DNA from: a virus
Lineage: Duplodnaviria; Caudoviricetes
Direction: 5' to 3' (one strand)
DNA: 53,592 nucleotides
Virus record (IMG/VR): IMGVR_UViG_3300043420_001594
Location: 1 to 53,592 of that record
In this document: positions 37,917-53,592 of the stretch, piece after piece
How positions within the stretch are numbered: position 1 is the first letter of the stretch
Layout: each line of letters begins with the position of its first letter
The notes under the pieces: generated by a model
The model's input: the letters and a program-made list of their open reading frames with translations, nothing else
Databases searched by the model: none
Told to the model about the DNA's origin: nothing
Made by a program: the position numbers and the translations under genes

Positions 37917-37921
37917 AGCGG

Positions 37922-39721
37922 ATGAGTCTGCTGCGCTACATCATGAAGCATGCACAGGTGACGCCTTCGGCCGCCAAGCCGGAGGACAAGCCAGCTGTCG
38001 AGCGCGGCAATAACGTCCCCACCATGAAGCCCGACTTCAAGCCGATGGCCCATCAGGAGGCCGCGGTACAAAAATTATTCGATAATAAGGGGCGGCTGAT
38101 CCTAGCCCATCAGATGGGATCCGGTAAGACGCTGACCTCGATCTACGGGTTCGAGAAGATGCGCCAGTTCGGCAAGGCCAATAAGGCGATCGTCGTGGTG
38201 CCGGCGGGTCTCCGGGAAAACTTCGCAAGAAGCGGTGTGGAAAAGGCGACCAACTCTTCGTTTCAGGTTATCGGATCGTCCGAAGAAAAGAACCGGATGA
38301 GCAACTATGTTCGTCCGGACGAGGTCGACCCCAACAAAACCTACACGATCGTCTCGTACGACCAGATGAGACGCGACCCCGTAGGTCTGATGCAGCGAAC
38401 TGGTGCCGACACCATCATTGCGGACGAGTTCCACAAGACCCGCAACGACCGGTCTCAGGTGTACCGGTCGATGATGCAGGCCCGACAATACGCCACCAAC
38501 TTCATCGGAGTCACCGCATCCCTGATCAATAACCGCCCGGATGAAGTTGCCAAGCTCCTGAACTTATCAGAGGGAGGACCTCCAGTGTCTCCCCGAGACT
38601 TCATGAACCGGTACACCCGGACGGTCGGCACCGCGGAGGGGTTCGGGGGCAGCAAGAAGCGGGTCATCGGGATCAACAATCCTGAAGAATTCGCCATGAA
38701 GGTGGTGCCACGGGTCGACTACTTCGAAACCGGAGACATTCCTGGCGCTGCAATGCCCAGAAAGGACGTCAAGAATGTGTACGTCCCGATGTCTAAGGAG
38801 CAGTACCACCTGTACAGGCTGGCGCTCAATAAGCTGGGGCCCGTGCAAGAGTACATCACCCGGCGCGATCCCAACATCACGCTGAAGGACGCGGACAAAC
38901 TGTTTACCCAGTTGACGCAAGCACGGCAGATCAGCAACTCCATCGCCATGGGTCGCAAGGACGTGTCGGTAGACCAGGCGGCTGAAAGGACTCCGAAGGT
39001 CCGCAAGGTGCTGCAGGATACGGCCCAACACCTGCAGGACCGCCCCGACAACTCCGTGGTCCTGTACAGCAACCTGATCCGCGGTGGCGTGGACGTGCTC
39101 TCGGCTGGACTCAAGAAGGCCGGTATCCCGCATGCGCTCTTTATTGGCGCGGGTACTGAGTTGGGGGACGGAAAGGTCACCAACGTCAGTCGCTCGCAGG
39201 GAGTCGAAGACTTCAAAGCCGGTAAGGTCAAGGTGATCGTGTTGTCGGGCGCCGGCGCAGAGGGGCTGGATCTCAAAAACGCCACTGCCTTCTATTCGCT
39301 TGACGGTCACTTCAATCCTGAAAGGATCATGCAGGCAGAGGCACGGGCTCGGCGTCTGGGCGGGCAGGCCCACCGTCCTCCAGAACAGCGGGTTGTTGAC
39401 GTTCGCCGATATCAGTCGGTGGTCCCGGCGTCAGAGCAACCCGGTGTATTCGGAAAGATGCTGGGTAAGAAGACCCCACAAACCACTGACGAGTGGGCCT
39501 ACAACGTTGCTGGACGAAAGTTTCAGACAGCTCGCCAGTTCTATGACGTGATGCACAAGCCCACCAAGTACATTCGCAAAGAGTACTACACCAGGCGGGA
39601 CGGGACCCGAGCGATCCGCTACACCTACGCCCAGCAAGTTAGTCAGCCGAGAGGCCTATTTAGGAAGTTGTTCGGTCCAAAGGACACAGCCACCGCACCC
39701 GTTAAGCCGCTTGTTGGGTAA
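37922..39721 (+). CDS. SNF2-family helicase/ATPase
   Basis: AHQMGSGKT, IADEFHK, TASLINN, GAEGLDL, FNP...QAEARARRLG. Confidence 0.85.
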   Translation: MSLLRYIMKHAQVTPSAAKPEDKPAVERGNNVPTMKPDFKPMAHQEAAVQKLFDNKGRLILAHQMGSGKTLTSIYGFEKMRQFGKANKAIVVVPAGLRENFARSGVEKATNSSFQVIGSSEEKNRMSNYVRPDEVDPNKTYTIVSYDQMRRDPVGLMQRTGADTIIADEFHKTRNDRSQVYRSMMQARQYATNFIGVTASLINNRPDEVAKLLNLSEGGPPVSPRDFMNRYTRTVGTAEGFGGSKKRVIGINNPEEFAMKVVPRVDYFETGDIPGAAMPRKDVKNVYVPMSKEQYHLYRLALNKLGPVQEYITRRDPNITLKDADKLFTQLTQARQISNSIAMGRKDVSVDQAAERTPKVRKVLQDTAQHLQDRPDNSVVLYSNLIRGGVDVLSAGLKKAGIPHALFIGAGTELGDGKVTNVSRSQGVEDFKAGKVKVIVLSGAGAEGLDLKNATAFYSLDGHFNPERIMQAEARARRLGGQAHRPPEQRVVDVRRYQSVVPASEQPGVFGKMLGKKTPQTTDEWAYNVAGRKFQTARQFYDVMHKPTKYIRKEYYTRRDGTRAIRYTYAQQVSQPRGLFRKLFGPKDTATAPVKPLVG

Positions 39722-39729
39722 GAGGCCAC

Positions 39730-39960
39730 ATGAACGCGTACCGTAGACAGAGAATCCTAAGCAAAGTGGCTTCCCGTCGCTCAAGACACGCGTACGAGAA
39801 ATCTGCCGGATTGGCCTCTATCGCCAAATTGAGCAACCAGGAGCTGGCCGCGTTGCTGCGAAAAGCCCTCAAAAACAAGCCAGCGATCGAGAATGCCCTG
39901 GGGCAAGCCCTGAACCGGTGGCCCAAGTACCATAACATGATCATTCAAGCTCTTTCCTGA
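39730..39960 (+). CDS. Small basic protein with K-x-A motifs
   Basis: AGAGG RBS; LSKVAS, YEKSAG. Confidence 0.6.
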   Translation: MNAYRRQRILSKVASRRSRHAYEKSAGLASIAKLSNQELAALLRKALKNKPAIENALGQALNRWPKYHNMIIQALS

Positions 39961-39968
39961 GGTCGGTC

Positions 39969-40451
39969 GTGCCGTTCACTAGTGAGAAGCAACGCCGCTT
40001 TATGTTTGCCGAGCACCCCCGTATCGCCAAGCGCTGGGCCCACGAGAACCCAGAAGGCGACGAGGGCCTCCCCACCTACGCGCATGGGAAGACCACATCC
40101 CCTGACCTCAAGAAGCGCTGGGAAAGGTTGAAGGCTCGTCGTAGTATCGGTAAGCCTCAGGAGGGTGAAGAAATGAAGTACAGTGACAAGGGGGTGGCCG
40201 CCCCATCCAAGGGCCAGAAGTACGCGAAGAAGAAGATGGCTGGCCTGTCGGACCTGATCAAGAAGGCGCAGCCTTCTGGCCCCGTCAATGTCCGCGAAGC
40301 CAGCAATCCCAAGATGAGCTGCATGACCTGCAAGTACTTCACTCCCCTGTCGGGCAACCGCGCGGGCCCAGGTATGTGTGGTGTGGGGTCGAGGCCCGTC
40401 CCCGTCAAAGGCACGGATGTCAGCGATTCGTATGAGTCGAAGGTGGTGTGA
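39969..40451 (+). CDS. Basic protein with C-terminal CxxC domain
   Basis: MPFTSEKQRRFMFA N-terminus; CMTC...C domain similar to 41322..41537. Confidence 0.65.
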   Translation: MPFTSEKQRRFMFAEHPRIAKRWAHENPEGDEGLPTYAHGKTTSPDLKKRWERLKARRSIGKPQEGEEMKYSDKGVAAPSKGQKYAKKKMAGLSDLIKKAQPSGPVNVREASNPKMSCMTCKYFTPLSGNRAGPGMCGVGSRPVPVKGTDVSDSYESKVV

Positions 40452-40452
40452 C

Positions 40453-41049
40453 ATGATGGGAAACAAGGAAAAGGCCAAGCTCTTGGCCCGTTTCGCCAAG
40501 GTTAAGGAGGCCGACGGTATGATGCCCGAGGCCGAAGATGAGGGCGAGATGGAGAACGGCAGCGTTGGCGGAGACCCCGCCGGGATGCTGTGCCAGGTTC
40601 TCGGTATGCTGTTGGCGATGCGGCAGAACTATCACTCCAGCCACTGGCAAGTCAGCGGTCCCAACTTCTATGGCGACCACCTGATGTTCAGCAAACTGTA
40701 CGAGTCTGTTAGTGACGACATCGATACTCTCGGAGAGAGGCTGGTGGCCAAGTATGGAGCCGACAAGGTTGACGGCGCCAAATTGAGCCAGACGCAGGCC
40801 CAGATTCTCATGGATCTGGCCCAACAGGCGGACCCGGTTCAGCGCGGTATCTCTTCAGAGAAGGCGTACCAGGCTCTGGTCAAGAGCGTGTACGAGGCCC
40901 TGAAGGAGATGGGTGCGCTCTCGCTCGGCTTGGACGACTTCCTGATGGCGTCAGCCAACACGCACGAGACCAATGAGTACCTACTTGGTCAACGTGCCGG
41001 CGGTACTGGCGGCGGTGTCTCGATCACAATGCTGCGAAAGGCCATGTAG
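40453..41049 (+). CDS. dps: Dps/ferritin-like protein
   Basis: HSSHWQVSGPNFYGDHLMFSKLY...DIDTLGER matches the Dps ferroxidase signature (H, H, D, E). Confidence 0.8.
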   Translation: MMGNKEKAKLLARFAKVKEADGMMPEAEDEGEMENGSVGGDPAGMLCQVLGMLLAMRQNYHSSHWQVSGPNFYGDHLMFSKLYESVSDDIDTLGERLVAKYGADKVDGAKLSQTQAQILMDLAQQADPVQRGISSEKAYQALVKSVYEALKEMGALSLGLDDFLMASANTHETNEYLLGQRAGGTGGGVSITMLRKAM

Positions 41050-41067
41050 CCTGAATACGGGGTATCC

Positions 41068-41313
41068 GTGGTAGACCTGAGCGAGCAGATCAAGAAGGCG
41101 GCGGCGGAGCTCCGGGTCAAGTCCCTCAAGGACATCCAAGTGGAGACCGCCAAGACGTGGGCGGGGCGTGCCTGCGTGGCGGCCGGTATGGGGCGAGAGC
41201 AGGACGCGATCGAGTACGCCCATGAGGCCATAGAGCACGCAGCACTGTCTGGCAAGGAAGGACTCCTGACAGACATTCGCGCGTCCCTGCGGGCCTGCGG
41301 GGTCGATGTCTAG
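41068..41313 (+). CDS. Hypothetical protein
   Basis: Helical; IKKAA near the N-terminus. Confidence 0.6.
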   Translation: MVDLSEQIKKAAAELRVKSLKDIQVETAKTWAGRACVAAGMGREQDAIEYAHEAIEHAALSGKEGLLTDIRASLRACGVDV

Positions 41314-41321
41314 GAGGCTGG

Positions 41322-41537
41322 ATGAACCAGTACGTCCGGAAAGAGCTGAACCCTCCCGGACTGCGATTATCTAGGCCCGGTGAGCCGTCATGTGCTGATT
41401 GTCAGCACGCCGTGTCCGGTATGGCGGATGCGCACTCCGGGGCTATGACGTGTCGAGCTGGTCATCGAGATGTCCCAGTCCGCCAAGACTTTCTGTGCAA
41501 CCTGTATGAGCCCGCGGATGGTGAGGATCAGGACTGA
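41322..41537 (+). CDS. Small four-Cys protein with HiPIP-like spacing
   Basis: AGGAGG RBS; CADC...C...C. Confidence 0.6.
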   Translation: MNQYVRKELNPPGLRLSRPGEPSCADCQHAVSGMADAHSGAMTCRAGHRDVPVRQDFLCNLYEPADGEDQD

Positions 41538-41740
41538 ACCGTCACGGTCCACTTCTGCACCTGCACCCGGGCACCCGGGATCATGTGTCGGACCAGCTGT
41601 TTGACCGACTCCTTTTCCGCGTGGGCGAGCGGCCACCTGATGTGTAGGATCAGGGTATCGCCTTGCTCCTCGTAACGATCCAGTGTATTGCCGAGGGCGC
41701 GGGACAGCATCGCCACGACCCCGGAGAAACGCGTGTTCAA
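41528..41740 (-). CDS. Possible small antisense gene
   Basis: Protein-like 70-aa ORF filling the gap before the terminase; overlaps its uncertain start. Confidence 0.3.
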   Translation of the reverse strand: MNTRFSGVVAMLSRALGNTLDRYEEQGDTLILHIRWPLAHAEKESVKQLVRHMIPGARVQVQKWTVTVQS

Positions 41741-43406
41741 AGTTCACCCCCGGCAAACCCAACAAGTATCCGCCGCATCCCTGGAACTCTTTCCGTCCGA
41801 GTTCACGAGCCACATCATGCGGATGCCGCATGAAGGGGCGCTGGCCCCATTCTCATTCACCGGTCGAGAGTACCTGATACCTGTCTACGATACACCGCAC
41901 CCGCGGGTGCTGCTGATGTTTGCGCGTCAGTCCGAGAAGTCAACAACCCTCGGCAACAAGATCTTGGCGCTGTCGTGCCTGCGTCACCACTTCAAGTCCC
42001 TATTCGTGAGTCCCTCACAACAGCAGACCGAGGTGTTTAGTCGTGACAAACTGTCGTCCCCGCTCAACCTGTCGGAAGACCTGCGCACGTTCTTGGACAA
42101 GAGCGCCAACAACGTGCTGTTCAAGCGGTTCATCACCGACTCCAGCGTGACGTTGAGGTACGCGTTTCTTCACGCCGACCGTACGCGCGGTATTCCGGCA
42201 GACGCGCTGTTCTTGGACGAGATCCAAGACATCTTGACGGACGTGATCCCGATCATCGAGGAGTGTATGTCGCACTCCCCCTACCAGCTCATGACGTATT
42301 CGGGCACCCCAAAATCACTCGATAATACGATCGCCTACTACTGGAACACCTTCTCGACCCAGAACGAGTGGATGATCCCGTGCGACCGGTGCGGTGGTGG
42401 TGACTACCGGCACTGGGACGTGATCGGTTACGACAACATCGGTCCTGAGGGACTGATCTGCAGTAGATGCAAGAAGGGTATCGACCCTCGGCATTCAGAT
42501 GCCCGGTGGGTATCGCAGAGGTCTGCGCGGTGGTTGCAAGCACCAGATGGAATTCCATTTGAGGGGTACCGGATCCCCCAGATCCTGACCAACTGGGTCA
42601 ACTGGCCCAAGGTCCTGGACAAGAAGAATCGATACGGCAAGGCACAGTTCTACAACGAGGTGCTGGCGCTACCGTACGACTCCGGCGACAAGCCCATCAA
42701 ACGGGAGACCCTGCTGGAACAGTGCAGCGGCATCTCGTTTGCGGATTCCGTCAACTTCTCGGGCAGATCAACCCTGTACATGGGAATCGACTGGGGCGGC
42801 ACCACCAACGCGGGGGGTGGTGAGGAGGGCGGCGTTAGGAAGTCCGCCCCCGCCAGCAGCTACACCGTGGTATCAATCGGCGGATATCTGGGCGGCAAGT
42901 TCCAGTACATCTACTTCCGGCGGTTCGAGGGTGAGGAGGCGGTCATGGACAACATGCTGCCCGTCATCATCCAGCTGGTAGATCGATACAAGATCTCGAT
43001 CATCGGTACCGACTACGGCGGTGGCCTCCACCCGAACGACCGTCTGATCCGACAGTTCGGTATCCGCCGTGTGGCTCGCTATCAGTACGTCAATACCCGC
43101 AAGATCTACTTCAACAAGGACCTGCACCACTGGATGGTCAACCGGACAGAAGCCCTCATGGCCCTCATCAACGCCATCAACCGTAAGGACGAGATCCGAT
43201 TCCCCACATTTAGTGACTGGGAATTCCCTTTTGCGCAGGACCTGCTGTCAGTCTTCACCGAGTACAACAGCTCCAACACCCAAATGATCATCACGAAGGC
43301 GCCGGGCTCCTCTGACGACACCATGCACTCCATGATGTACTGCTGGCTGGCCAGCATGATCGAGCACCCACGGCCCGACATTCTGGCTGCGGACCGAACT
43401 CACTAG
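41688..43406 (+). CDS. terL: Terminase large subunit (lambda gpA-like, with Zn motif); start uncertain
   Basis: ARQSEKST (Walker A variant), RGIPADALFLDEIQD, SGTPK, CDRC...CSRC, FYNEVLALPY, MGIDWG, DDTMHS. Confidence 0.85.
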   Translation: MPRARDSIATTPEKRVFKVHPRQTQQVSAASLELFPSEFTSHIMRMPHEGALAPFSFTGREYLIPVYDTPHPRVLLMFARQSEKSTTLGNKILALSCLRHHFKSLFVSPSQQQTEVFSRDKLSSPLNLSEDLRTFLDKSANNVLFKRFITDSSVTLRYAFLHADRTRGIPADALFLDEIQDILTDVIPIIEECMSHSPYQLMTYSGTPKSLDNTIAYYWNTFSTQNEWMIPCDRCGGGDYRHWDVIGYDNIGPEGLICSRCKKGIDPRHSDARWVSQRSARWLQAPDGIPFEGYRIPQILTNWVNWPKVLDKKNRYGKAQFYNEVLALPYDSGDKPIKRETLLEQCSGISFADSVNFSGRSTLYMGIDWGGTTNAGGGEEGGVRKSAPASSYTVVSIGGYLGGKFQYIYFRRFEGEEAVMDNMLPVIIQLVDRYKISIIGTDYGGGLHPNDRLIRQFGIRRVARYQYVNTRKIYFNKDLHHWMVNRTEALMALINAINRKDEIRFPTFSDWEFPFAQDLLSVFTEYNSSNTQMIITKAPGSSDDTMHSMMYCWLASMIEHPRPDILAADRTH

Positions 43407-43488
43407 CCCATTACTCGGTAATGTCTGGACGAGCTTTCAACTTCGGACGGGCCGGTGCTACCATGCTGTAGGTTGCGAGAGGTTTACC

Positions 43489-44487
43489 GTGGACCTAGAA
43501 CAGTACCTGCTTTCAAAATCTGCTTGTGGCGCTGACTGCGGTTGCGGGTGCGGCGGGAAAGTCGATCCCGACACCTTGAAGATGTACGGCCAAAAGGCCG
43601 CCACGCAATTTGTGGGGGAGCAGGTCCCCATGAACGACTCCATCGTGCAGATGGCCAAAGAGGCCAATCTGAACCACGAGCAAGTTAAGCGCGTGGTCGA
43701 GCACGCCAACAACCTGGCCTTCTCCCAGATGTTCAAAGCCGGGTTCTCTCAGAACATCACGTTCCCGATGGCCGACACCTCAGTGGTCATGCAGAATCTG
43801 GAGGCGCCCATGCAGGTCAAGCAGGCCAGTGTCGATATCGTGAAGGGCAGCAGGTATGTCCCGGGTCAGGAGCGTGTGTCGCTGGAGGCAGCGTTCGGCT
43901 ACAACTCCGTCACCCGCGCGATCGAGAAGACCGCCGCCCCTGTCATTGACCGTCATGACCTTACGCGCCAGTACCTCGACAAGGTCGGGGCAGTCCAGAA
44001 GATGCAGTCGGACATGGAGATCTTGGCCGATTCATTTGAGCTGAAGATGGTGGCGTTGGACCGGATGGTCAAGCAGGCTCAGACCGAAGGTTACTCATCC
44101 GAGGTAATTGGTTCTTGCGTGGACGCCGCCAATCCTTCCAGCATCATCCTGAACTACTTGGGCGACCGCTACGGTTCCGCCATCTCGGTCGGATCGATCC
44201 ACAAGCTGGCCCAGATGGGCATGGAGATGGTGAGCAACCCGATCACCGACTCTGTGGTGACCCTACAGAACATGCAGGAGCAACTATTTCAGTTGAGCTC
44301 CAGCATCGAGCGGGCCCAGCAACAGGTTGGTTTGATGCTGCAGACCATGCAGGCGCCCCAGCAACAGAACTCGGCATCGCGGTTGTTCTCGTCGAACAAT
44401 AGCCCCGGCCCCTCTCGGCCTACTCCTGAGGCTCCCCAGGCCACTGTACCGCAACCGCAGGACCAAGCTCCCTTGGAGTCCTACTAG
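43489..44487 (+). CDS. Head-module coiled-coil protein with K-x-A motifs
   Basis: LSKSAC, VKQAS, IEKTAA, HKLAQ; lies between terminase and protease. Confidence 0.7.
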   Translation: MDLEQYLLSKSACGADCGCGCGGKVDPDTLKMYGQKAATQFVGEQVPMNDSIVQMAKEANLNHEQVKRVVEHANNLAFSQMFKAGFSQNITFPMADTSVVMQNLEAPMQVKQASVDIVKGSRYVPGQERVSLEAAFGYNSVTRAIEKTAAPVIDRHDLTRQYLDKVGAVQKMQSDMEILADSFELKMVALDRMVKQAQTEGYSSEVIGSCVDAANPSSIILNYLGDRYGSAISVGSIHKLAQMGMEMVSNPITDSVVTLQNMQEQLFQLSSSIERAQQQVGLMLQTMQAPQQQNSASRLFSSNNSPGPSRPTPEAPQATVPQPQDQAPLESY

Positions 44488-44495
44488 GGTGGTGG

Positions 44496-45098: not shown

Positions 45099-45107
45099 GA
45101 GCACCAG

Positions 45108-45746: not shown

Positions 45747-45756
45747 TGAGGATCTG

Positions 45757-46002: not shown

Positions 46003-46015
46003 TGGAGGCCCGCGC

Positions 46016-47608
46016 ATGCTGAAACTGATCACACTGCCGGGCGTCAGCGATACCGGGGACATCTTGATTCAGGCGATCTTTCCGGGAGCTCCGCTTGTCA
46101 AAACGGCTTCCGCGGCCCTCCATCCGGAGATTCAAAAGTACCTGGGCGACCTGAAGTCGAAACCTGAGAAACTGTACGTGCTGGTCAACGCGCTGGGCGC
46201 GGGGGAGTGGTACGGCAGCAACATCAACGGCGACTACTTCGAGGAACGGGAACTCAACACACCGCAGGGTTCTGAGTTCGGGTTTCGCACGTTCTTGGAC
46301 TCAGGCGTCTACCGACACCACGTCAACAAGGACATTAAGAAATCGTTCGGCAAGGTGATGGTGTCGGTCTACAACCCCATCATGCACCGAGTCGAGCTGG
46401 TCATTGAGATTGACCGGGCTAAGGCTGCGCAAGAGGGCCACGGGGATCTGGTTGACCAACTGGACGCCGGCAAGAACCCGGCTGTCTCGATGGGCTGCCG
46501 GGTGGCGTTCGACGTCTGCAGTATCTGCGGAAACAAGAGCAAGACCCGCAACGATTACTGTCTGCATGCCAAGACAATGATGAATCAGGTCCTACCCGAC
46601 GGTAGAAAAGTGTATGTTCTGAACCCCAACCCCAAGTTCTTCGACATCTCCTTCGTGCTGATCGGGGCGGACCGCACCAGCTACGCAATGGCAAAGGTGG
46701 CGTCGGTGTACGGCGTATCACCGGGTAATATGTTGTCGGCGGACTTGGCGGAAGAGTACGGTTTGCGGGATCGCTCATCCGTCACCATGCTGGCGGAAAA
46801 GCTGGCCAACAAGCAGAAACTCTCCAATATGGTCAAGAACCTGCCCGCCATTTCGGCCAAGGTGATGCCCGGCATCACCGGACAGGAACCCAACCTACCT
46901 GCTGAACTGTTGGATCGGCTGGCCCAAAAGCCTCTCCCCTCCGTCACCACTACGCTGTCAGCCTCAGGGATCGTCTTGAAGCCTGCCGAATACCAGCGTA
47001 TCGTTCTGATGAAGATGGGGCAGGCCGACAAGGCCGCTCGTCTCGCGAAACTTGGGTCGGTGTTCCGCCCCAACGGGCATGCCGATCACTCGATCCGGTA
47101 CCTAGACGCTCGGCACTACGACGTGGACGTTCGGGATATGGCGATCCCCTACTTGGAGAAGAGGTCCGCCTTCGATCCCGTTCTCAGTCGTAGACTTCAG
47201 AAGGCCTCGGCATCCTCGCGCACGCATGAGCAGTTTGCAGATGACGAGTTGCTCGATAAGATCGCATCTGGGTACAACGGTTACCGGGAGCAGATGTTGG
47301 AGAACATCAGTACCCTGGTGGCCACAACAACGGGCAGGGATCCAACCCTGCTCACGGCGCTGTCTGGCGCAGACCTCGAAGGGATGTTCTTGGGCAACGG
47401 TCTGGCAAAATCAGCGGAGGTGAGCCCCCCGCAGGCCCTGCTAGGCGCGGTACCATGGGCATACCTTTACGGAGCCTTCGGTGGAGGTTCTGGGGAGGGT
47501 ACTGACAAGGCAGAGTCGTTCGTCGCTAAGCACCCGCTGTTGGCGGCGTCCATTTTGGCTGGCCTCGGGAAACTGAGTGCTGGCCTGGTGAAGGCAAAGT
47601 TGGTTTAG
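46016..47608 (+). CDS. Prohead (maturation) protease, HK97/assemblin-like, with Zn finger
   Basis: SNINGDYF...YRHH...FGKV...VELV...AVSMGC.V..DVCSICGN...CLH...FFDISFV..GAD; upstream of scaffold candidates and MCP. Confidence 0.7.
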   Translation: MLKLITLPGVSDTGDILIQAIFPGAPLVKTASAALHPEIQKYLGDLKSKPEKLYVLVNALGAGEWYGSNINGDYFEERELNTPQGSEFGFRTFLDSGVYRHHVNKDIKKSFGKVMVSVYNPIMHRVELVIEIDRAKAAQEGHGDLVDQLDAGKNPAVSMGCRVAFDVCSICGNKSKTRNDYCLHAKTMMNQVLPDGRKVYVLNPNPKFFDISFVLIGADRTSYAMAKVASVYGVSPGNMLSADLAEEYGLRDRSSVTMLAEKLANKQKLSNMVKNLPAISAKVMPGITGQEPNLPAELLDRLAQKPLPSVTTTLSASGIVLKPAEYQRIVLMKMGQADKAARLAKLGSVFRPNGHADHSIRYLDARHYDVDVRDMAIPYLEKRSAFDPVLSRRLQKASASSRTHEQFADDELLDKIASGYNGYREQMLENISTLVATTTGRDPTLLTALSGADLEGMFLGNGLAKSAEVSPPQALLGAVPWAYLYGAFGGGSGEGTDKAESFVAKHPLLAASILAGLGKLSAGLVKAKLV

Positions 47609-47715
47609 GCTCTAAGGTAGGGCCTGTTGCCAACGACCGGTACTGCGCCTAGGCTGTTTCGGCGGTCCAAGATGGTCAGCACCAACAACGCTGTGTGTTA
47701 CACGAGGAGTTACAG

Positions 47716-48285
47716 ATGAACGAGATTCTTGCTCAAGCGTACGGTACCCGTGAGAAGTTGGCCTCGGCCGTCGAGAAGACCGCCGAGGCGGCGCTCCTGG
47801 ACGAGCTGGTCAAGGTTGCGGAGGCTGAGGGCGTGGACCTGAACCAGCTCGACGACAATGACATCGCCGAGATCCTGGCCAGCGCCATGCAGGAGGCTGC
47901 CGCCGAGAAGACGGCGTCGGCTGAGGACGAGGGCCTGTCGGATGTCGACAGCGCCAAGCTCCAGGAGGCTGACTTCCTGGGTCGCGTGATGGCTCACGCC
48001 ATGTTCGACGAGATGGCTAGCATTCAGGACGGCGATGTCGAGAAGACGGCGTCGGCTGAGGAGCAGGAGTTCCTGCAGGCCTTCGAGTCGATGGCCGTCT
48101 ACAAGGCCAACGAGATCCTGGCCGCCGTTGGCGTCGAGGAAGCGGGCGAGCACGTCAAGACCGCGGCTCCGTACGAGGTCGAGGACGACCAGCTCGCGAC
48201 CGCCATCATCGAGCGCGCCGGCGAGCTGCTGGACGAGGCTGGTTGGGATGTCGATGCCATCGCGAGGGCGCTGGAAGGCATGTAA
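47716..48285 (+). CDS. Acidic scaffold-like protein with repeated EKTASA
   Basis: GAGGAG RBS before ATG 47716; very acidic; six K-x-A motifs. Confidence 0.65.
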   Translation: MNEILAQAYGTREKLASAVEKTAEAALLDELVKVAEAEGVDLNQLDDNDIAEILASAMQEAAAEKTASAEDEGLSDVDSAKLQEADFLGRVMAHAMFDEMASIQDGDVEKTASAEEQEFLQAFESMAVYKANEILAAVGVEEAGEHVKTAAPYEVEDDQLATAIIERAGELLDEAGWDVDAIARALEGM

Positions 48286-48293
48286 GGGTCTTT

Positions 48294-48400
48294 GCTCAAC
48301 CCATCACCTGGTAATAAACTGGTGCGGTGGGTTGGGCGGACGATAGCCTCGGTCGCGGCCCACCAGGTAGTCGCTGAGACTGGGTGGTGGGCCGCGACCG
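48294..48400 (+). promoter_or_regulatory. Tandem stem-loops in intergenic region
   Basis: Stem 1 GCTCAACCCATC/GGTGGGTTGGGC with G-U pairs. Stem 2 is a perfect 16 bp (48350-48365/48385-48400) just before the AGGAGAGG RBS. Confidence 0.65.
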
Positions 48401-48419
48401 GACGGCAGGAGAGGTCGGG

Positions 48420-49100
48420 ATGTCATCGAGTAAACTGATCCAAAGCCTGATGGGCGCCAAGCCGGTCACCAAGACCGCGTCGGCTGAGCCCGGTCTGACG
48501 GACCCGGTCTACGTTGAGAAGTTGGCTTCCGCCGTCGACTTCATCCACGACCACTACGAGACCTTGGACATGGCCAAGGTGGCGGCGGCCAAGAGCGTCC
48601 CTGCTGCGGAAAAGATGCCGGCTAAGGAGATGGAGGTCACAAAGGCCATCACGGCTCCACCGGTTGACGACAAGATGGCCGACAAGGTCCGCGCATCTCT
48701 GGCGGAGAGCCTGAAGAATCGGCTCAAGAAGAAGGAGGCTGAGGCCTCCGTACAAGACGACGCAGTTGTCCAGTCAGTGCTGGGCAAGCTGTTGCGGATG
48801 CGTGCTGAGGTAGAGGCTCCGGCCGAAGAAAAGGCCGAGAAAGCCCCCGAGCAGCAGTCGCAAACTGAACCTGACTCCCCTGTGGAGGAGGAGACTGAGG
48901 TCAAGGCCGCCAGTTTGGCAGACTTGTCCTTGGCGGACGTACTGGAAGGTGCGCTCCGGGCCAACGAACTTGAGGAGGGCGTCTCCAGGGAACGCTCGAA
49001 GACTGCAAGTGTTCGTGGCGAAAAAGGGCCAACGGCCCGCAAAGCGGCTGTCCAGACCCTGAAGCAGGGCTTGATGGCCAAGTTCGGTAAGGAGGCGTAA
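48420..49100 (+). CDS. Scaffold/core-like protein with K-x-A motifs
   Basis: RBS before ATG 48420; TKTASA, EKLAS, AKVAA, VKAAS, SKTAS. Confidence 0.65.
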   Translation: MSSSKLIQSLMGAKPVTKTASAEPGLTDPVYVEKLASAVDFIHDHYETLDMAKVAAAKSVPAAEKMPAKEMEVTKAITAPPVDDKMADKVRASLAESLKNRLKKKEAEASVQDDAVVQSVLGKLLRMRAEVEAPAEEKAEKAPEQQSQTEPDSPVEEETEVKAASLADLSLADVLEGALRANELEEGVSRERSKTASVRGEKGPTARKAAVQTLKQGLMAKFGKEA

Positions 49101-49104
49101 ACAC

Positions 49105-49452
49105 ATGGAACGGTTGGATGAAAACTCCGTCCGTCAAGTCCTCTCCCAGGTGGGTCCGGTTCTCCGGGCACTCGTGGAAGAGAACGTGAAGCTAGCGAGT
49201 GCTTTGAAGGAAGCGCAGCGCGCCGAACAGGCGGAAGAGATCGTGACCATGATGGATGCTCGTGGTCTCAGCGATAGGTCGGTTCCTTTTAAGCAGAAGG
49301 TGGCAGCTTTGCTATCTTCTAAGAAGGACCTCGGCGTCGTCAAAGAGGCTCTGGCAATCGTCACCCCCGACATGTCCTTTGCTTCGTTGTCGGATGTTCC
49401 GGACAACGATGCCACCGACACGCTCGAGGGCTACCTGCTCTCGGGGCAGTAA
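49105..49452 (+). CDS. Head-module helical protein
   Basis: AAGGAGG RBS; VKLAS. Confidence 0.65.
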   Translation: MERLDENSVRQVLSQVGPVLRALVEENVKLASALKEAQRAEQAEEIVTMMDARGLSDRSVPFKQKVAALLSSKKDLGVVKEALAIVTPDMSFASLSDVPDNDATDTLEGYLLSGQ

Positions 49453-49474
49453 TCAGTAACTTCGGAGGTTCAAA

Positions 49475-50074
49475 ATGGCAGCTAAGACGATTAGTGCGAC
49501 TCGTCGCCGCAACGTCACGCCCACCTCGTCGATCCTTCGGATCGTGACGCGGGATGTGGACTGCAGCGCGTTTCCTGTAGCACCTGAGGATGGTCAGTTT
49601 GTAATCACCGCGGGCGACACCGCGGGCACCGGGTTCAGCGACTGGGCTAATGGTACGCCCTACGTGTTTTCGGATGCGACTGCGAACAACGTGACCGCTG
49701 AAGACGCGATTGGCTCAAGCATCAAGATGGTGTGGTCGTCTGCTCTGCAGACCGACCGCCAGGCTCTCGGCAACACCAAGGTGCCGGTGCTCTTCTTGGG
49801 CGGCGTGGAAGTGGAGTGCCAACTCCTCAATGCTGACGACAGCCTCGCGCTCAACCACGCCAACTACTACCCGGCCGGCACGTTGGTGACGGTCAAGAAG
49901 GCGTCGTCGTCTGTGCAGGGGACTGCTAACCGTCTGGTCATCAACCCGCTGGCGTCTGGCCACTATGGTTGGGCCGTTGGCTACGTGACCAAGACCACCA
50001 GCGACACGGCGGCGGACGGTAAGTCCGTCACCATCATGCTGTACGATCAGCCCCGCAAGGTCGGCAACTTCTAA
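49475..50074 (+). CDS. Probable capsid decoration/minor head protein
   Basis: GGAGG RBS; beta-rich; immediately upstream of the MCP. Function inferred from position. Confidence 0.55.
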   Translation: MAAKTISATRRRNVTPTSSILRIVTRDVDCSAFPVAPEDGQFVITAGDTAGTGFSDWANGTPYVFSDATANNVTAEDAIGSSIKMVWSSALQTDRQALGNTKVPVLFLGGVEVECQLLNADDSLALNHANYYPAGTLVTVKKASSSVQGTANRLVINPLASGHYGWAVGYVTKTTSDTAADGKSVTIMLYDQPRKVGNF

Positions 50075-50092
50075 TCCTAAGGAGGACACACA

Positions 50093-51301
50093 ATGAACCA
50101 GAATGTACCAGGAGAGGTCCTCAACGAGCTATTCTTGACGAAGCTCGACACTGAGGCCGGCAAAGAGAAGATCGCTCAGCTGGGCTCGGACTACATCCGT
50201 GACCGTCTCCGTGAGGAGTCGTTCTCGGCCAAGGTCCTGGCCAAGCGTCAGGTCTCGCGTTCGGAGCTGCAGGTCAGCGTCAACCACGACTACTTGGTCA
50301 AGATCGTTGAGATCGAGCCCCAGAGCCGTGCGATGTCGATGAGCTTCCGCGGTCAGCCGAGCGTCAAGTACTACACTGGCGATCGCTTTGAGTGCGCGTT
50401 CCACACCGTTGGTTCGCTGCGCTACGAGCAGACGGAACAGGAGCTGATGGCGTACTCGATGCCCATCACGCAGATCATCCGTCAAAACATCGTCAACGAC
50501 ATCGCTGAGGTTGAGGACCGCGTGTTCCTCGGCCACATCGAGTCGGCGTGCCAGGCGCTGCAGAAGGATGCCAACAGCATCGCTCTGACCGCGGCGTTCG
50601 CGGATGCCACGGCCTTCACGGCCCGCAACGTCGCCAAGACCTCTGGTGGCGTCAAGGAAGTGGGCAAGGCCAAGGGCATCGACGCCATCGCCAACACCGC
50701 TGCCGCCAGCGATGCTGCGGGTCTGTCGGAGAACCTGATCTTCCCCGTCCAGAAGGACGACATGATCAAGTTGTTCCAGCTCTTTACGGGCACGGGCAAC
50801 CGTGGTTCGCGTCTGCGCTGCGATCAGTTCCTCATCACCGACACCGACTTCGAGGACATCAACTCGTGGGCGCTGGCGGACATGGGCGACAAGATCGTGG
50901 GCGAGACCAGCGTCGACGGTTACAAGTACTCGACGGTGATCGGCCGCAAGTTCATCCGTACCCTGAAGACGGACATCCTCCGTCCCGGCAACATCTACGC
51001 CTTCGCGGCGCCGGAGTTCCTGGGCGGCTTCATGGTGCTGAACAAGCTGCAGTTCTACGCTGACAAGGAGCGCAACCGCGTTTCGTTCGAGGCGTGGGAG
51101 GACATCGGCATGTACATCGGCAATATCGCTGGTTGCCGCAAGCTGGAGCTGTACGCGGGTGCGGTTGAGGTGGCGGCCACCAATACCGCGACCGAGTCGG
51201 CTTACCGCGCCAAGTACCTGCCGGTGGCTGAGGATCAGCTGGGCAAGAAGAACAACCTCGTCGCCGAGGGTGGCACCTTCCCGAATATCCAGCAGTTCTA
51301 A
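50093..51301 (+). CDS. Major capsid protein (HK97 fold)
   Basis: AAGGAGG RBS, strongly biased codons, 402 aa. Follows the protease-scaffold-decoration order; DIAEVEDRVFL helix and WEDIGMYIGN C-terminal strand. Confidence 0.75.
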   Translation: MNQNVPGEVLNELFLTKLDTEAGKEKIAQLGSDYIRDRLREESFSAKVLAKRQVSRSELQVSVNHDYLVKIVEIEPQSRAMSMSFRGQPSVKYYTGDRFECAFHTVGSLRYEQTEQELMAYSMPITQIIRQNIVNDIAEVEDRVFLGHIESACQALQKDANSIALTAAFADATAFTARNVAKTSGGVKEVGKAKGIDAIANTAAASDAAGLSENLIFPVQKDDMIKLFQLFTGTGNRGSRLRCDQFLITDTDFEDINSWALADMGDKIVGETSVDGYKYSTVIGRKFIRTLKTDILRPGNIYAFAAPEFLGGFMVLNKLQFYADKERNRVSFEAWEDIGMYIGNIAGCRKLELYAGAVEVAATNTATESAYRAKYLPVAEDQLGKKNNLVAEGGTFPNIQQF

Positions 51302-51317
51302 GCTGGGGGTCCTGATG

Positions 51318-51361
51318 GGTGCGCCCCGTACATCCTGGTGGTGTGCGGGGCGTACCTGTTT
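51318..51361 (+). terminator. Hairpin after the major capsid gene
   Basis: 17-bp stem (51318-51334/51340-51356) with G-U pairs that form only on the + strand RNA, followed by TGTTT. Confidence 0.65.
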
Positions 51362-51457
51362 CCGGGGATGGTTGGGTTGACGACCAAGTCACTGATAGAC
51401 TGGGTGCGGATATTATCCTAAAGTGGCGTGGCCATTCACGGCACATAGGAGTCGAAC

Positions 51458-51907
51458 GTGATTTACGTCATCACCAACCTGATCCACACCTCTGGCGACC
51501 AGCATCGTCGTGGGCATCGTCTTCGCGAGTTCCGCAAGGGGCGCGTTCAGATTGGTCCTCGTAGCATCGATGAGGGCAGGTCCGCCTCCTTCTCGGAAGA
51601 GATGTACAACCAGTACAAGGAGCGGATCGACCACTACCAGCAGATCGGTATGATCAAGGTGGTGTCGTTCGGCGGCCCGGACCCCGTCATCCCCGCCGAG
51701 GATCCGGTCATCCTCCAAGAGACCGTCAGCGTGGTCGAGGCGGCGTCGGCGTCGGTGGAGCCGGCGCAAGAGGCAGCGGCACCCGAAAGTGTGTCGGAGC
51801 CGGCCGAGATCCCGGCCCCAGAGAAGTCGGATTCCGTTGACCCAGAGGAAGAGGTGCCGGCCGCGCCGGCAGCCAAGCGCAGGGGCCGTCCTCCCAAGGA
51901 GAAGTAA
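51458..51907 (+). CDS. Hypothetical protein with acidic linker and C-terminal AT-hook-like motif
   Basis: AGGAG RBS; ends KRRGRPPKEK. Confidence 0.65.
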   Translation: MIYVITNLIHTSGDQHRRGHRLREFRKGRVQIGPRSIDEGRSASFSEEMYNQYKERIDHYQQIGMIKVVSFGGPDPVIPAEDPVILQETVSVVEAASASVEPAQEAAAPESVSEPAEIPAPEKSDSVDPEEEVPAAPAAKRRGRPPKEK

Positions 51908-52450
51908 ATGGCGGACAATACCGACAAGGCTGAGCTTGGTATCCAACCGACGGTTGCGGCGGGTCTTCCGCCCAGACTGTTGCACGTCATCGCGATGGTG
52001 CGGGCCAAACTCCGGGACTACCCAGAGCTAAACCGACTGGTGGCGGGGCAGGAGACTAGTGATCGTCAGATCGCCTTAGCCATCATGGAGGCGATCGATG
52101 ACTACAACACCACGCCCCCGCTCATCGATCCCGTCACCCTGGACACTCACCCATCCATCTCGCTGCTGGTGAACGGCACCATCATCTATGTGCTGGAGTC
52201 GGTGGGTTTGCTGCAGACCCGCAACCAGATGAACTACGCAGACGGGCAGGGCGTGCAGGTCGGGGTCAACGACAAGTCCCCCATGCTGATGCAGTGGATC
52301 GGTCTGTTCCGCGGACAATATGAGCAGAAGAAGATGCGGCTCAAGCAGGCCGTTAACCTGAAGGGCGCGCTCAATCAGGGAGGCGTTCCATCCGAGTACG
52401 CCTTCGTGAACGGATTCTTCGACAACCTCTCAGACGGTAACCCGAGGTAA
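51908..52450 (+). CDS. Probable head-tail adaptor/neck protein
   Basis: VRAKLRD...SDRQI..AI..AIDDYN pattern and post-MCP position. Confidence 0.55.
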   Translation: MADNTDKAELGIQPTVAAGLPPRLLHVIAMVRAKLRDYPELNRLVAGQETSDRQIALAIMEAIDDYNTTPPLIDPVTLDTHPSISLLVNGTIIYVLESVGLLQTRNQMNYADGQGVQVGVNDKSPMLMQWIGLFRGQYEQKKMRLKQAVNLKGALNQGGVPSEYAFVNGFFDNLSDGNPR

Positions 52451-52452
52451 CG

Positions 52453-52857
52453 ATGCCGCAGATTCCTTACAAGGACACCCAGACTCTGGTCGTCCCTTTG
52501 GCCAACCCCAACGTGATTGTGTCGCTACCGATCCCGGACAGCCAACACTACCTCGGCTTCGCTATTCAGATCATCGACGCCAAGTGTGACGTCGGCAATC
52601 CTGCGGTCGATGGCGGATTTCGGGTTGAGGCGAACCTGGGCGGAGTAGACAGCAACGGAGATCCCGCGTGGGCTGTCGTCTACTCGGCGGACTTCTACGC
52701 TCCCCAAGATCCCCACTTTCATCAGGGTGAGGTCATCACCTTTAGCCTTCGCGCCCCTGCTAAGAATGGGATCAGAGTCGTCTCGAAGAGCGCCGTCACA
52801 GCAGGCGGCAAGGTCATGGTCTCCATGTACGAGCGTGCTTACCCGCCGCAGGTTTAA
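52453..52857 (+). CDS. Hypothetical beta-rich virion protein
   Basis: GAGGT RBS; in operon. Confidence 0.6.
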   Translation: MPQIPYKDTQTLVVPLANPNVIVSLPIPDSQHYLGFAIQIIDAKCDVGNPAVDGGFRVEANLGGVDSNGDPAWAVVYSADFYAPQDPHFHQGEVITFSLRAPAKNGIRVVSKSAVTAGGKVMVSMYERAYPPQV

Positions 52858-52881
52858 TATTATCAAGTAATGGGGCAGCGG

Positions 52882-53112
52882 ATGTCTGATCAAATTGCAC
52901 GCACATCCCCAGACGACCGTCGACTAACGGCGGCTGCGGAGTTCTTTCGGTCCTTGAAGAAGGAGGCCGGAGTTCCTGCAGCCGGCGGAATCCGCGCAGC
53001 TGCCCGTCGGGCAGTTCGTGGGCTCGTCCATACCAACCCGCTCCCGACACGGGGCGAGTCGGCGTTAAAACAATCCCTCGAGGCGAGGCTAACCAAGGCC
53101 CTGCGGGCCTAA
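52882..53112 (+). CDS. Small basic protein with K-x-A motif
   Basis: FFRSLKKEAG followed by an Arg-rich segment. Confidence 0.55.
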   Translation: MSDQIARTSPDDRRLTAAAEFFRSLKKEAGVPAAGGIRAAARRAVRGLVHTNPLPTRGESALKQSLEARLTKALRA

Positions 53113-53127
53113 CGTAAGGAGACCGTG

Positions 53128-53592
53128 ATGAACGCGATTGGAAAGTTTCAGTTGAAGCAGGCGCTGACCGAAGAGCTGACCAAGGAAGCAAAGAAGAAGG
53201 GCCTTGGTACCGCGGCTGAGGGCGCGACCTTGGGTGCCTTGTTGGCCGGACCCCTAGGTGCTGCTATTGGTGCGGGGATTGGTCGCAAGATGGGCAGTGG
53301 CAAGGGTGAGCGGTACAAGGGCTCACCCGCCGCTCGTGCTGCTGGCGGGGCACTCCTCGGCGGCCTCCCTCTCGCAGTACTGGGTGTCCGGCTTGGCGCT
53401 AAGGGCCATCTCAGGTCCGCCATCGCCTCGCACATCGCGGGCACTGCAGGTAGCGTGATCGGTGCCCGCCGAGCTGCGGCGAGCGCGTACGCCGGAAAGA
53501 ATAAGCACGCCTCGCCCGCCTCTGGTGCGGCGGTCGGTGGCGCGCTGCTGGGTCCAGTGGGCGCGATGATCGGTGCCGCAGCAGGAAAGAAG
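53128..53592 (+). CDS. Basic glycine-zipper protein, 3'-truncated
   Basis: AAGGAG RBS; hand translation MNAIGKFQLKQALTEELTKEAKKKGLG...GALLAGPLGAAIGAGIG...; open to the window end. Confidence 0.7.
   Translation, partial: MNAIGKFQLKQALTEELTKEAKKKGLGTAAEGATLGALLAGPLGAAIGAGIGRKMGSGKGERYKGSPAARAAGGALLGGLPLAVLGVRLGAKGHLRSAIASHIAGTAGSVIGARRAAASAYAGKNKHASPASGAAVGGALLGPVGAMIGAAAGKK

Follow-up and report, generated by a model that had tools for sequence, protein, structure and literature searches.

In phage T4, as far as the passages of PMC9958956 on its head-bound proteins go, these proteins carry an N-terminal capsid targeting peptide of about 10 residues, a tag given there as common to IPII and IPIII only and removed by the prohead protease gp21, which, besides trimming the capsid protein and cleaving itself, digests scaffold proteins at numerous points. 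The T4-type prohead protease of the giant phage SPN3US, gp245, is described in the relevant sections of PMC10052503 as cutting after A-X-E, as removing from head and ejection proteins both short (20 and 24 residues) and long propeptides, in which multiple motif copies occur, and as cutting itself. In P1 the N-terminal 30 residues of DarB, a 250-kDa anti-restriction protein, suffice for capsid loading, and the same portion of that account reports that a shared consensus was not found among Dar N-termini (PMC9024508). Polyvalent proteins of phages and conjugative elements, as characterized in an excerpt of Iyer et al. (2017; PMC5512222), are packaged and multi-domain, frequently include an SNF2 ATPase, and are processed by peptidases.

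The window analysed here is the whole stretch of 53,592 nucleotides from a large, uncultured Caudoviricetes phage (IMG/VR record IMGVR_UViG_3300043420_001594), whose closest cultured relatives are Salmonella phage Arash and Vibrio phage D69. An earlier note had drawn attention to short leaders ending in K-x-A on unrelated proteins of this stretch; all ten that it listed are in the sequence at their places, and the observation is confirmed as real. The features concerned, all on the + strand, are as follows.

22056–23096, +: acidic 346-aa protein upstream of the portal, 11 K-x-A sites versus 2.2 expected (counts)
33988–35955, +: 655-aa protein, 16 K-x-A sites versus 5.2 expected (counts)
37922–37954, +: leader of the SNF2 ATPase (protein 37922–39721), residues 1–11, K9-H-A11
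39730–39771, +: candidate leader of a 76-aa basic ORF, residues 1–14, K12-V-A14 (sequence)
40453–40512, +: leader of the Dps/ferritin-like protein (40453–41049), residues 1–20, K18-E-A20
41068–41100, +: leader of an 81-aa ORF, GTG start, K9-K-A11, conserved in the close relative L014
43489–43524, +: leader of a 332-aa head-module protein, GTG start, K10-S-A12 (sequence)
44496–44519, +: leader of a 200-aa basic glycine/alanine-rich protein, K6-I-A8 (conservation)
45108–45140, +: leader of a 212-aa basic protein, K9-E-A11 (conservation)
45757–45798, +: leader of an 81-aa ORF, K12-L-A14; the L014 orthologue retains ...ILHKLA
46016–47608, +: head maturation protease, domain about 16–216 plus a C-terminal extension (PHROG, fold search)
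47716–48285, +: acidic scaffold-like protein, pI 4.05, six K-x-A sites (conservation, counts)
48420–49100, +: second acidic scaffold-like protein, nine K-x-A sites (conservation, counts)
50168–50176, +: K26-I-A28 of the major capsid protein (50093–51301), candidate maturation site (alignment)
52960–52968, +: candidate K31-E-A33 of an 80-aa basic ORF (52870–53112) (sequence)
53128–53190, +: N-terminus of a glycine-zipper-like protein, K10-Q-A12 and K19-E-A21; the ORF runs off the window end

It is rather likely that K-x-A is the recognition and cut site of the phage's own T4-gp21-like protease, and that the leaders are propeptides on prohead-resident cargo; on the best reading of the sequence, the system would be a variant of those of T4 and SPN3US with a new motif. 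So far as the cited portions describe those phages, the likenesses to T4 are the short N-terminal peptides, a protease whose best fold match is T4 gp21, and a motif found again on the capsid protein, on the scaffold-like proteins and on the protease that the phage itself encodes. The differences are the motif itself, a roughly 300-residue C-terminal extension on the protease, and a tagged set that has an SNF2 ATPase and a Dps-like protein and is known here from sequence alone. With SPN3US (and phiKZ) the window shares, on the same partial accounts, a T4-type protease, propeptide-like leaders and multiple motif copies, although it comes from a different phage group and its fixed residues are Lys and Ala, Glu being only a frequent residue before Lys, whereas gp245 cuts after Glu. 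The T4-type proteases in these descriptions cut after Glu, so that recognition of Lys and Ala would mean a genuine shift in specificity, a point against this reading.

The motif is unevenly distributed, in excess and conserved. Among 23 + strand genes in 37110–53592, compared with composition-matched draws, K-x-A lies within residues 1–15 of 8 head-module proteins, a count that none of the 300 draws attains (2.25 expected), within residues 1–22 of 11 (3.4 expected) and within residues 1–35 of 15 (5.4 expected), and the control motifs A.K, R.A, E.A and K.L are not enriched in the same N-terminal count. The 22 other window genes show no clear excess (3 versus 1.1 expected, a value that 9% of draws reach), and K-x-A does not exceed expectation in the RNA polymerase, portal and terminase, which speaks against the protease-site reading. 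A similar division is found in D69, where 7 of 25 structural genes carry an N-terminal K-x-A against 2.2 expected (0.2% of 500 draws reach 7) and the early genes show no excess (5/76 versus 4.9 expected); the head proteins of D69 and Arash have the same site pattern. Across 14 orthologue alignments no i,i+2 residue pair is conserved as often as K.A, which has 24 sites versus 12 for the next pairs. Many of these sites are conserved islands within variable sequence, kept in relatives of about 50% identity though the flanks differ. The fuller consensus is hydrophobic-(E/V/T)-K-(T/V/L/E)-A-(S/A), with Glu immediately before Lys in 43% of 329 sites; the rule of the T4 protease is Leu/Ile-x-Glu.

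The leaders are add-ons. The earlier note had proposed as a test whether they belong to the conserved folds, and they lie outside them: Pfam SNF2-rel_dom begins at residue 44 of the SNF2 protein and the ferritin domain at residue 47 of the Dps-like protein (PF00210, 29.3 bits versus a cut-off of 24.5). The AlphaFold model of the SNF2 protein has a detached helix at 3–11, disorder at 12–24 and the fold from about 35–43. The leader is absent from distant homologues of both proteins. In tblastn comparisons with cultured-phage helicases the matches begin at query residues 23–44, and the Arash SNF2 orthologue begins directly at the helicase motif; a Dps leader ending in K-x-A is present in 9 of the 10 closest homologues, versus any K-x-A in the N-terminal extension of only 2 of 37 distant ones. 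The one measurement is indirect: the Arash helicase gp217 appears in virion mass spectrometry with 1148 spectra and 100% coverage, which favours packaging, but it is without a leader, and the preparation, with 116 proteins listed, is not clean, because ribonucleotide reductase (663 spectra) is present.

From 120 SNF2 relatives listed, K-x-A falls within residues 1–22 in 67 of 83 full-length N-termini against 11.5 expected, and in long relatives it lies 35 residues or fewer before the helicase domain in 18 of 23 against 6.7 expected, shuffle tests over related sequences overstating significance because such sequences share ancestry. Several fused relatives have an additional N-terminal portion similar to the glycine-rich protein encoded upstream, and the K-x-A in these fused forms indicates that the motif works as a joint and not at the N-terminus only. 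Such fusions with a K-x-A joint recall polyvalent proteins, but in the window most modules are encoded by individual genes that each have a leader, and processing would be by the head protease and not by a built-in peptidase domain. The window SNF2 protein is a stand-alone 599-aa ATPase in which Pfam and PHROG profile searches found no methylase domain; a DarB-like PHROG family matches it weakly (E 8.9e-4). It shares the SNF2-type ATPase module with DarB, which according to parts of PMC9024508 and PMC5512222 is head-loaded via an N-terminal signal, but it stands alone and its tag ends in a motif common to many head proteins.

The assignment of 46016–47608 as a protease is made with moderate confidence. 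It matches phrog_18299, head maturation protease, at E 8.9e-9, and in an unbiased fold search of 48,161 chains its top match is T4 gp21 (5jbl_A; 131 residues aligned, rmsd 3.6) at Z 7.0, a score inside the range that the search tool calls common, from a model of mean pLDDT 57.6. Pfam (E <= 0.01) and Foldseek (E <= 0.001) searches returned no match, and hhalign against T4 gp21 gave a probability of 0.08. All 17 sequences compared have K29 and A31, which stand within a variable stretch; H101, H102 and S158 are invariant too. K-x-A sits at the domain borders, and the candidate self-processing sites are K29-T-A31, K227-V-A229, K262-L-A264 and K465-S-A467.

The adjoining scaffold-like proteins are similarly rich in sites. 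The 47716 protein, whose true start is 47716, has its six against 1.6 expected; four of the six are conserved, and the EKTA sites are kept in 94–100% of 16 sequences amid varying flanks. The 48420 protein (true start 48420) has its nine against 4.1 expected. In the capsid protein K26-I-A28 is present in 13/13 aligned sequences, weak evidence because the flanks are conserved too, and Arash and D69 capsid proteins have a similar ...L[VT]KEA at residue 27. Some conserved K-x-A in the capsid protein and in a 115-aa protein lie in fully conserved helices, where they may be structural. The multiple scaffold sites, among which those of the proteins at 22056–23096 and 33988–35955 are counted, the protease sites at K29, K227 and K465 and the capsid N-terminal site together make a T4-like processing pattern. 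The assumption that K-x-A is specific to N-terminal tags thus did not hold: it is a general site, found also inside scaffold-like proteins, at protease borders and at SNF2 joints.

Among the remaining leaders, that of the 200-aa protein keeps K-x-A, in the form ...LEK[RQKH]A, in 86% of 14 aligned sequences, and that of the 212-aa protein, which has a single hydrophobic, TM-like segment at 83–101, in 83% of 6. The 45757-type leader heads orthologues of the 45108 protein in more distant relatives, and the leader of the 76-aa ORF resembles the ...ILxKLA leaders of the 45757 ORF and of those orthologues. The 332-aa protein has seven K-x-A versus 1.4 expected, with internal sites K111, K147 and K195 conserved in 88–100% of 16 aligned sequences within variable flanks. 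Its leader has K-x-A in only 2 of 20 related loci and K-x-D in 15, so that the helix may work there without a cut site; retention of the helix with loss of the alanine suggests an independent role for the helix. For the ORFs at 39730, 52870 and 53125/53128 no homologue was found in 24 related loci, and theirs are candidate leaders only; the glycine-zipper-like protein is 44.5% Gly+Ala, with three hydrophobic segments.

Whether a leader does more than present a cut site separates the readings most closely matched to these data. K-x-A might be a cut site only, the proteins entering the prohead by other contacts, or the tagged proteins might assist assembly and, once trimmed, disappear with no delivery to the host; the two forms together are unlikely. 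In their favour, K-x-A is frequent within proteins as well as at the joints of fusions, some relatives have SNF2 fused behind another protein that could be its carrier, the T4 tag is limited to IPII and IPIII in the passages of PMC9958956, and the leaders share across families only a loose pattern, a short helix with a hydrophobic residue at -2/-3 and then K-x-A. In a fixed-register matrix built from SNF2 leaders (shuffled-null maximum 4.8), 11 SNF2 leaders score 25 to 30, and the next matches are one 48420-family leader at 10.4, an internal acidic-protein stretch at 7.0 and a further SNF2 leader, with K one residue early, at 6.1. Against these points, T4 and P1 N-terminal peptides suffice for loading in the parts of PMC9958956 and PMC9024508 that deal with them, the 332-aa family keeps a helix that has lost its alanine, and the leaders, with their predicted helix, are hydrophobic at both -2 and -3 whereas internal sites mostly follow G/S/D/E. 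The idea of a portable packaging tag thus fares well in that the leaders are add-ons outside the folds and less well in that many further copies of K-x-A lie within head proteins and where proteins are fused. The earlier note's statement on the T4 tag agrees with the passages of PMC9958956, and its interpretation as a whole is partly supported.

An uncut docking peptide for the inner capsid shell or scaffold, the scaffold repeats being multiple docking sites, is improbable. Encapsulin cargo-loading peptides are the comparison here, and a short conserved linear motif that is set among variable linkers, that a ferritin-like protein carries and that scaffold-like proteins have in several copies would fit; the motif at protease domain borders and fused-protein joints is instead the T4-type processing-site pattern, as far as that is described, and a T4-type protease gene adjoins the leader genes. 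Very improbable is a role unrelated to the capsid, such as a host-protease degradation signal, a membrane-binding amphipathic helix or a Dps DNA-binding tail. A basic, glycine-rich composition and hydrophobic segments are seen in several of the tagged proteins, and the Dps leader is lysine-rich like the tails of cellular Dps proteins, yet the recurrence of K-x-A in the protease, scaffold-like proteins and fusion joints, and the confinement of the D69 excess to structural-module genes, would be left unexplained. Chance, composition or wrongly assigned starts, such as a K-E-A that is really a translated ribosome-binding site (AAGGAGGC), have the least probability of all and are largely refuted. 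The motif is loose, the genome is alanine-rich with 60% G+C, and the Dps gene is one case with a perfect internal AAGGAGG and, 8 nt later and right after K-E-A, an ATG that forms an alternative start. Against this, composition-matched draws and the four control motifs show no such excess, the motif survives at about 50% identity, and most leaders are encoded by codons unlike a ribosome-binding site. Dps relatives retain the leader as a peptide while the AAGGAGG-encoded K-E-A becomes K-K-A, which argues for the long form.

If K-x-A is processed by the phage's own protease, that enzyme would, inside the prohead, trim itself and chop the acidic scaffold-like proteins at many K-x-A sites, and may shorten the capsid protein close to the N-terminus. 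From a varying group of unrelated proteins, comprising the SNF2 ATPase, the Dps-like protein, membrane-type proteins rich in glycine, and small ORFs, it would also remove a short N-terminal helix. We infer from the sequence both the cutting at K-x-A and the bond concerned; the leader may double as an address label, with cargo injected into the host. Should the protease, like that of T4, work nowhere but in the prohead, a leader-bearing protein would be inside the prohead when cut, and the clipped protein would remain within the capsid, from which it could pass into the host together with the DNA. In that case a K-x-A leader probably marks capsid-loaded proteins, a helicase-type enzyme and a DNA-protecting protein being among the unrelated proteins that would come under one leader type.

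The protease leader ending in K29-T-A31 has the same motif and was not in the earlier list, which also lacked the leaders of the 47716 protein, ending in K21-T-A23, and of the 48420 protein, K18-T-A20 in the window copy, whose orthologues begin MSSL..LI.KLA. The proteins at 22056–23096 and 33988–35955 lie outside the span of the leader genes (37922–53200); the second, of 655 residues, has K14-V-A16 near its N-terminus and two ...KTAS sites.

The K-x-A leaders lie among the genes of a single block on the + strand, in a window that is itself a 53.6-kb fragment of an uncultured virus record estimated to be 30% complete; contigs of its relatives reach about 180 kb. Besides the head genes proper the window encodes tail genes, and a portal-like protein is found upstream of the block.

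Features of the + strand block and a gene upstream of it
Upstream of the block: portal-like protein (phrog_2739)
37110-53592, + strand: the single block
37110-37916, + strand: glycine-rich protein, first gene of the block, followed by SNF2
37922-39721, + strand: SNF2 ATPase (PF00176, E 4.4e-19)
After SNF2: small ORFs; Dps/ferritin-like protein (PF00210, 29.3 bits)
41688-43406, + strand: large terminase (PF05876)
Between terminase and protease: proteins of 332, 200, 212 and 81 residues
46016-47608, + strand: 530-residue protein matching PHROG head maturation protease
After the protease: two acidic proteins, likely true starts 47716 and 48420
Between the acidic proteins and the capsid protein: proteins of 115 and 199 residues
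50093-51301, + strand: major capsid protein, followed by more small proteins

The earlier note had listed ten leaders closed by K-x-A, and all ten are present where it placed them. Measured against composition-matched draws, K-x-A falls within the first 15 residues of 8 of the 23 head-module proteins (2.25 expected, with 8 reached in none of 300 draws), within the first 22 residues of 11 (3.4 expected) and within the first 35 of 15 (5.4 expected), and the control motifs A.K, R.A, E.A and K.L gave no excess in the same test. Short N-terminal peptides on unrelated proteins of the head module, which a T4-type capsid-targeting system would show, are present at 8 in 23 and are conserved in the relatives. 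Among the other genes of the window the motif was found in 3 of 22 (1.1 expected). Vibrio phage D69, a cultured relative whose protease is 37% identical to that of the window, carries an N-terminal K-x-A on 7 of 25 structural gene products (2.2 expected) and on 5 of 76 early and replication gene products (4.9 expected), and the excess in this phage is confined to the structural block. A single shared tag sequence was considered and rejected: a fixed-register matrix built from 35 SNF2 leaders missed most leaders of the other families, and for this reason the leaders are best described, on their sequences, as a loose helix-plus-K-x-A class with a common pattern and not one sequence. The three leader-bearing ORFs at 39730, 52870 and about 53125 had no homologue in the 24 related loci. 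A leader-like peptide ending in K13-R-A15 and followed by a glycine-rich stretch also opens a 396-residue protein of the replication block (14797-15987, - strand), which may be a chance K-x-A or a tagged non-structural protein; it sits between a 645-residue ORF (12799-14736) and a 344-residue ORF (15921-16955), putatively DNA polymerase and primase, as judged from position.

The 24 loci fetched for comparison are mostly about 50% identical to the window, and across 14 protein-family alignments K.A was the most conserved pair of residues at a spacing of two, with 24 sites against 12 for the next pairs. Many of these sites are conserved islands amid variable sequence, and some sit within fully conserved helices. 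In a logo of 329 sites K is preceded by E (43%), V or T at -1 and by a hydrophobic residue at -2, and after K come T, V, L or E, then A, then S or A, and a final A; the leader of the SNF2 proteins has the consensus M-S-L-x-x-(Y/F/L)-(L/I)-x-K-x-A. The 120 SNF2 relatives listed comprise 83 with full-length N-termini, 14 short forms with probably mis-called starts and 23 long forms; K-x-A lies in the first 22 residues of 67 of the 83 (11.5 expected), an excess to be read with the caution that shuffle tests on related sequences overstate significance through common ancestry. More informative is the persistence of K and A while the linker after them changes freely. The leader of the 332-residue protein reads K-x-D in 15 of 20 relatives.

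A peptide of this kind could simply be the beginning of a conserved fold, an outcome that the note had itself offered as grounds for abandoning its reading, and the leaders of the SNF2 and Dps-like proteins were found to lie outside both folds. The window protein is a SNF2 family ATPase, with the N-terminal lobe (PF00176, residues 44-340) and the helicase C-terminal lobe (PF00271, E 1.5e-9) both recognized; its AlphaFold model (mean pLDDT 82) places a helix over residues 3-11 and leaves 12-24 disordered, and the fold sets in at about residue 35. When the protein was compared with cultured phages by tblastn, the helicase matches began at query residues 23-44, and the SNF2 orthologue of Salmonella phage Arash begins right at the helicase motif. 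The Dps-like protein, whose PF00210 match (E 9.5e-7, above the cut-off of 24.5 bits) starts at residue 47 and which also matches phrog_3636 and phrog_858, is assigned on sequence a ferritin-like four-helix domain. In 9 of its 10 closest homologues a leader closed by K-x-A precedes a variable acidic linker, and any K-x-A occurs in the extension of only 2 of 37 distant ones. The Arash orthologue and most of the distant Dps homologues lack the leader. A ribosome-binding-site artefact, in which K-E-A would be no more than the reading of AAGGAGGC, could concern the Dps gene at most, and comparison with relatives speaks against it there, as the internal AAGGAGG-ATG is not conserved as such in them and the leader peptide is.

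That K-x-A closes the leaders is only part of its distribution, and the description of it as a leader motif needs to be broadened, since it recurs inside head proteins, in the protease and at fusion joints. Copies are numerous in the 189-residue acidic protein (6 against 1.6 expected), the second acidic protein (9 against 4.1) and the 332-residue protein (7 against 1.4), and, outside the span of the original finding, in a 346-residue acidic protein adjoining the portal gene (11 against 2.2) and a 655-residue protein (16 against 5.2). K29 and A31 of the protease show no variation across 17 sequences, in a stretch that is otherwise variable, additional conserved K-x-A sites lie at 227-229, after the catalytic domain, and near 465, and the capsid protein has one at K26. 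The leader motif is therefore the same as that of the scaffold-like, protease and capsid proteins. It is found in D69 and Arash head proteins as well, one scaffold-like protein of D69 having ten copies. Long SNF2 relatives have K-x-A no more than 35 residues before the helicase domain in 18 of 23 cases (6.7 expected). In several relatives (P0058, P0066, P0087, P0089, P0092, P0094, P0095, P0098 and others) a homologue of the glycine-rich protein encoded at 37110-37916 is fused to SNF2 in a protein of about 820-900 residues, and most of these fusions have K-x-A at the joint, P0092 having none there. Two SNF2 relatives, P0077 and P0088, stand out by their length, 962 and 881 residues, and a LAGLIDADG-type domain (PF14528) in one of them suggests an intein inside its helicase.

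Well-studied phages provide a framework for these observations. In T4 the scaffold is digested by the protease, which also trims itself and the capsid protein and strips short N-terminal peptides from internal proteins, and a tag of about 10 residues is enough to load foreign proteins (PMC9958956). SPN3US follows an A-X-E rule and has propeptides both short and long (PMC10052503), and in P1 the N-terminal 30 residues of DarB, an enzyme containing SNF2, bring it into the head (PMC9024508; PMC5512222). By analogy with T4 and SPN3US, K-x-A is most likely the recognition site of the phage's own head protease, and the leaders would most likely be propeptides of proteins present within the prohead at the time the protease turns active. 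The likeness to the T4-type system is that the window leaders end in a motif also marking scaffold-like, protease and capsid proteins, where cutting would occur; the difference is that T4 cuts after x-E, whereas the fixed residues of the window motif are K and A. Glutamate occupies -1 in 141 and +5 in 49 of the 329 K-x-A sites; it is not fixed, and the system would therefore work like that of T4 by another rule. That the motif is cut and at which bond, that the helix is an address label and that the cargo is injected are each things we infer from this analogy. Several observations count against it: the K-x-D leaders of the 332-residue protein in most relatives, the conserved sites within fully conserved helices, the loose pattern across leader families and the three leader-bearing ORFs that had no homologue in the related loci.

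A different arrangement is found in encapsulins, where the cargo-loading peptide is an uncut docking peptide on the cargo and the shell has neither portal nor packaging motor. An encapsulin system was rejected for the window, because terminase, portal-like protein and tail genes are encoded and the container is accordingly a phage capsid, not an encapsulin shell; a docking peptide that stays uncut within such a capsid is a less likely alternative. For this phage capsid a fuller picture can be drawn, tentatively and with somewhat less than even credence: the K-x-A helix would be a transferable address label that, in a clade of phages of about 180 kb, loads a changing toolkit for injection (the SNF2 ATPase, maybe acting on the incoming genome together with the phage's fused beta-beta' RNA polymerase, the Dps-like DNA-protecting protein, J-domain proteins and glycine-zipper membrane proteins), and a T4-type protease would have switched from a glutamate to a lysine/alanine rule.

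The candidate protease is itself divergent. The PHROG head maturation protease family matches it (E 8.9e-9), and a Pfam scan, in which Peptidase_S77 would be the model for the T4 gp21-type family, returned nothing at E <= 0.01. Its profile found nothing below E 0.86 among the sequences of solved structures, Foldseek with its model found nothing in the PDB at E <= 0.001 (E values 0.29-0.40), and hhalign of the profile with T4 gp21 fell short of significance (probability 0.08), the sole stretch pairing window ...AVS158M with T4 ...GVS140S, where S140 is presumably the catalytic serine of gp21. In an unbiased fold comparison against 48,161 chains T4 gp21 (5jbl_A) ranked top (Z 7.0, rmsd 3.6, 131 of 165 residues aligned) and varicella protease scored Z 4.7, both with an AlphaFold model of mean pLDDT only 57.6. 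All 17 sequences compared have H101, H102 and S158. The gene lies among the head genes, just before the scaffold-like and capsid genes, as expected of a prohead protease, and the order terminase, three small proteins, protease, two acidic proteins, capsid protein is the same in Arash and D69. Because of the top fold rank of gp21 and the three invariant residues, and despite the lack of significance in the Pfam, Foldseek, PDB and hhalign comparisons, the protein is regarded with moderate confidence as a divergent T4/herpesvirus-type assembly protease. Prediction of a complex between residues 32-224 of the protease and residues 1-45 of SNF2, with alignments for each, scored 0.15 and 0.23, below the 0.32 mark for any verdict, and so speaks neither for nor against an interaction. 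The protease domain has a distant homologue in Mycobacterium phage Alice (L031), where it makes up the N-terminal part of gp90, a 1511-residue protein encoded just before the capsid gene; extension of the motif to cluster C mycobacteriophages was rejected, as K-x-A is only mildly in excess in gp90 (19 against 8.8) and not clearly so in the neighbouring proteins.

The first tools that a phage has in a cell it has just infected are the proteins loaded into its capsid, and these are known in detail only for a few model phages, namely T4, P1 and the phiKZ group. A motif present both on maturation sites and on probable cargo would make the set of likely head-internal proteins readable from sequence across an uncultured marine and freshwater clade of phages of about 180 kb, together with the cultured D69 and Arash. 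If the Lys-x-Ala rule is true, the known specificity range of T4/herpesvirus-type assembly proteases is widened; should the leader prove to be an address label, it would provide a new handle for packaging foreign proteins into these capsids and point to the SNF2 ATPase and the Dps-like protein as injected early factors. Searches on capsid targeting sequences and prohead proteases, and on SNF2 and virion RNA polymerase, found no description of the K-x-A motif, and among the papers listed for the motif itself none concerned phages. The Arash paper does not describe the motif either and contains no occurrence of 'protease' or 'cleav'. The Arash helicase, which has no leader, is represented by 1148 spectra in a virion list of 116 proteins, but this count is weak evidence because the list includes ribonucleotide reductase, and so broad a list cannot be used to test the idea.

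A Pfam scan of eight further leader-bearing accessory proteins of the relatives found a J-domain in two and no other family. Both are glycine-rich proteins encoded upstream of SNF2, in related loci L009 (815-1660; DnaJ J-domain, E 9.3e-7) and L004 (2459-3157; DnaJ J-domain, E 3.7e-5), and each has a K-x-A close to its N-terminus. The closest relative, L014, has an extra 377-residue gene (4348-5478) between the small ORFs and the terminase, and its product, with an N-terminal ...LIEKLA leader, matches no Pfam family. The fused RNA polymerase of the window (26045-32311, + strand), whose gene directly follows the portal-like gene, combines beta-type and beta'-type domains in one protein of 2088 residues (Rpb2 domain 6, E 1.1e-52, and Rpb1 domains 1, 2, 3 and 5); in Arash the beta and beta' subunits are separate and among the most abundant proteins of the virion preparation. 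The longest frame of the terminase, at 41688, opens with TTG, and because L-P-x-A-L-D/E is conserved in its relatives at the very start of the open frame, ahead of any Met, comparison of these frames suggests that the terminase start is conserved as a non-ATG codon.
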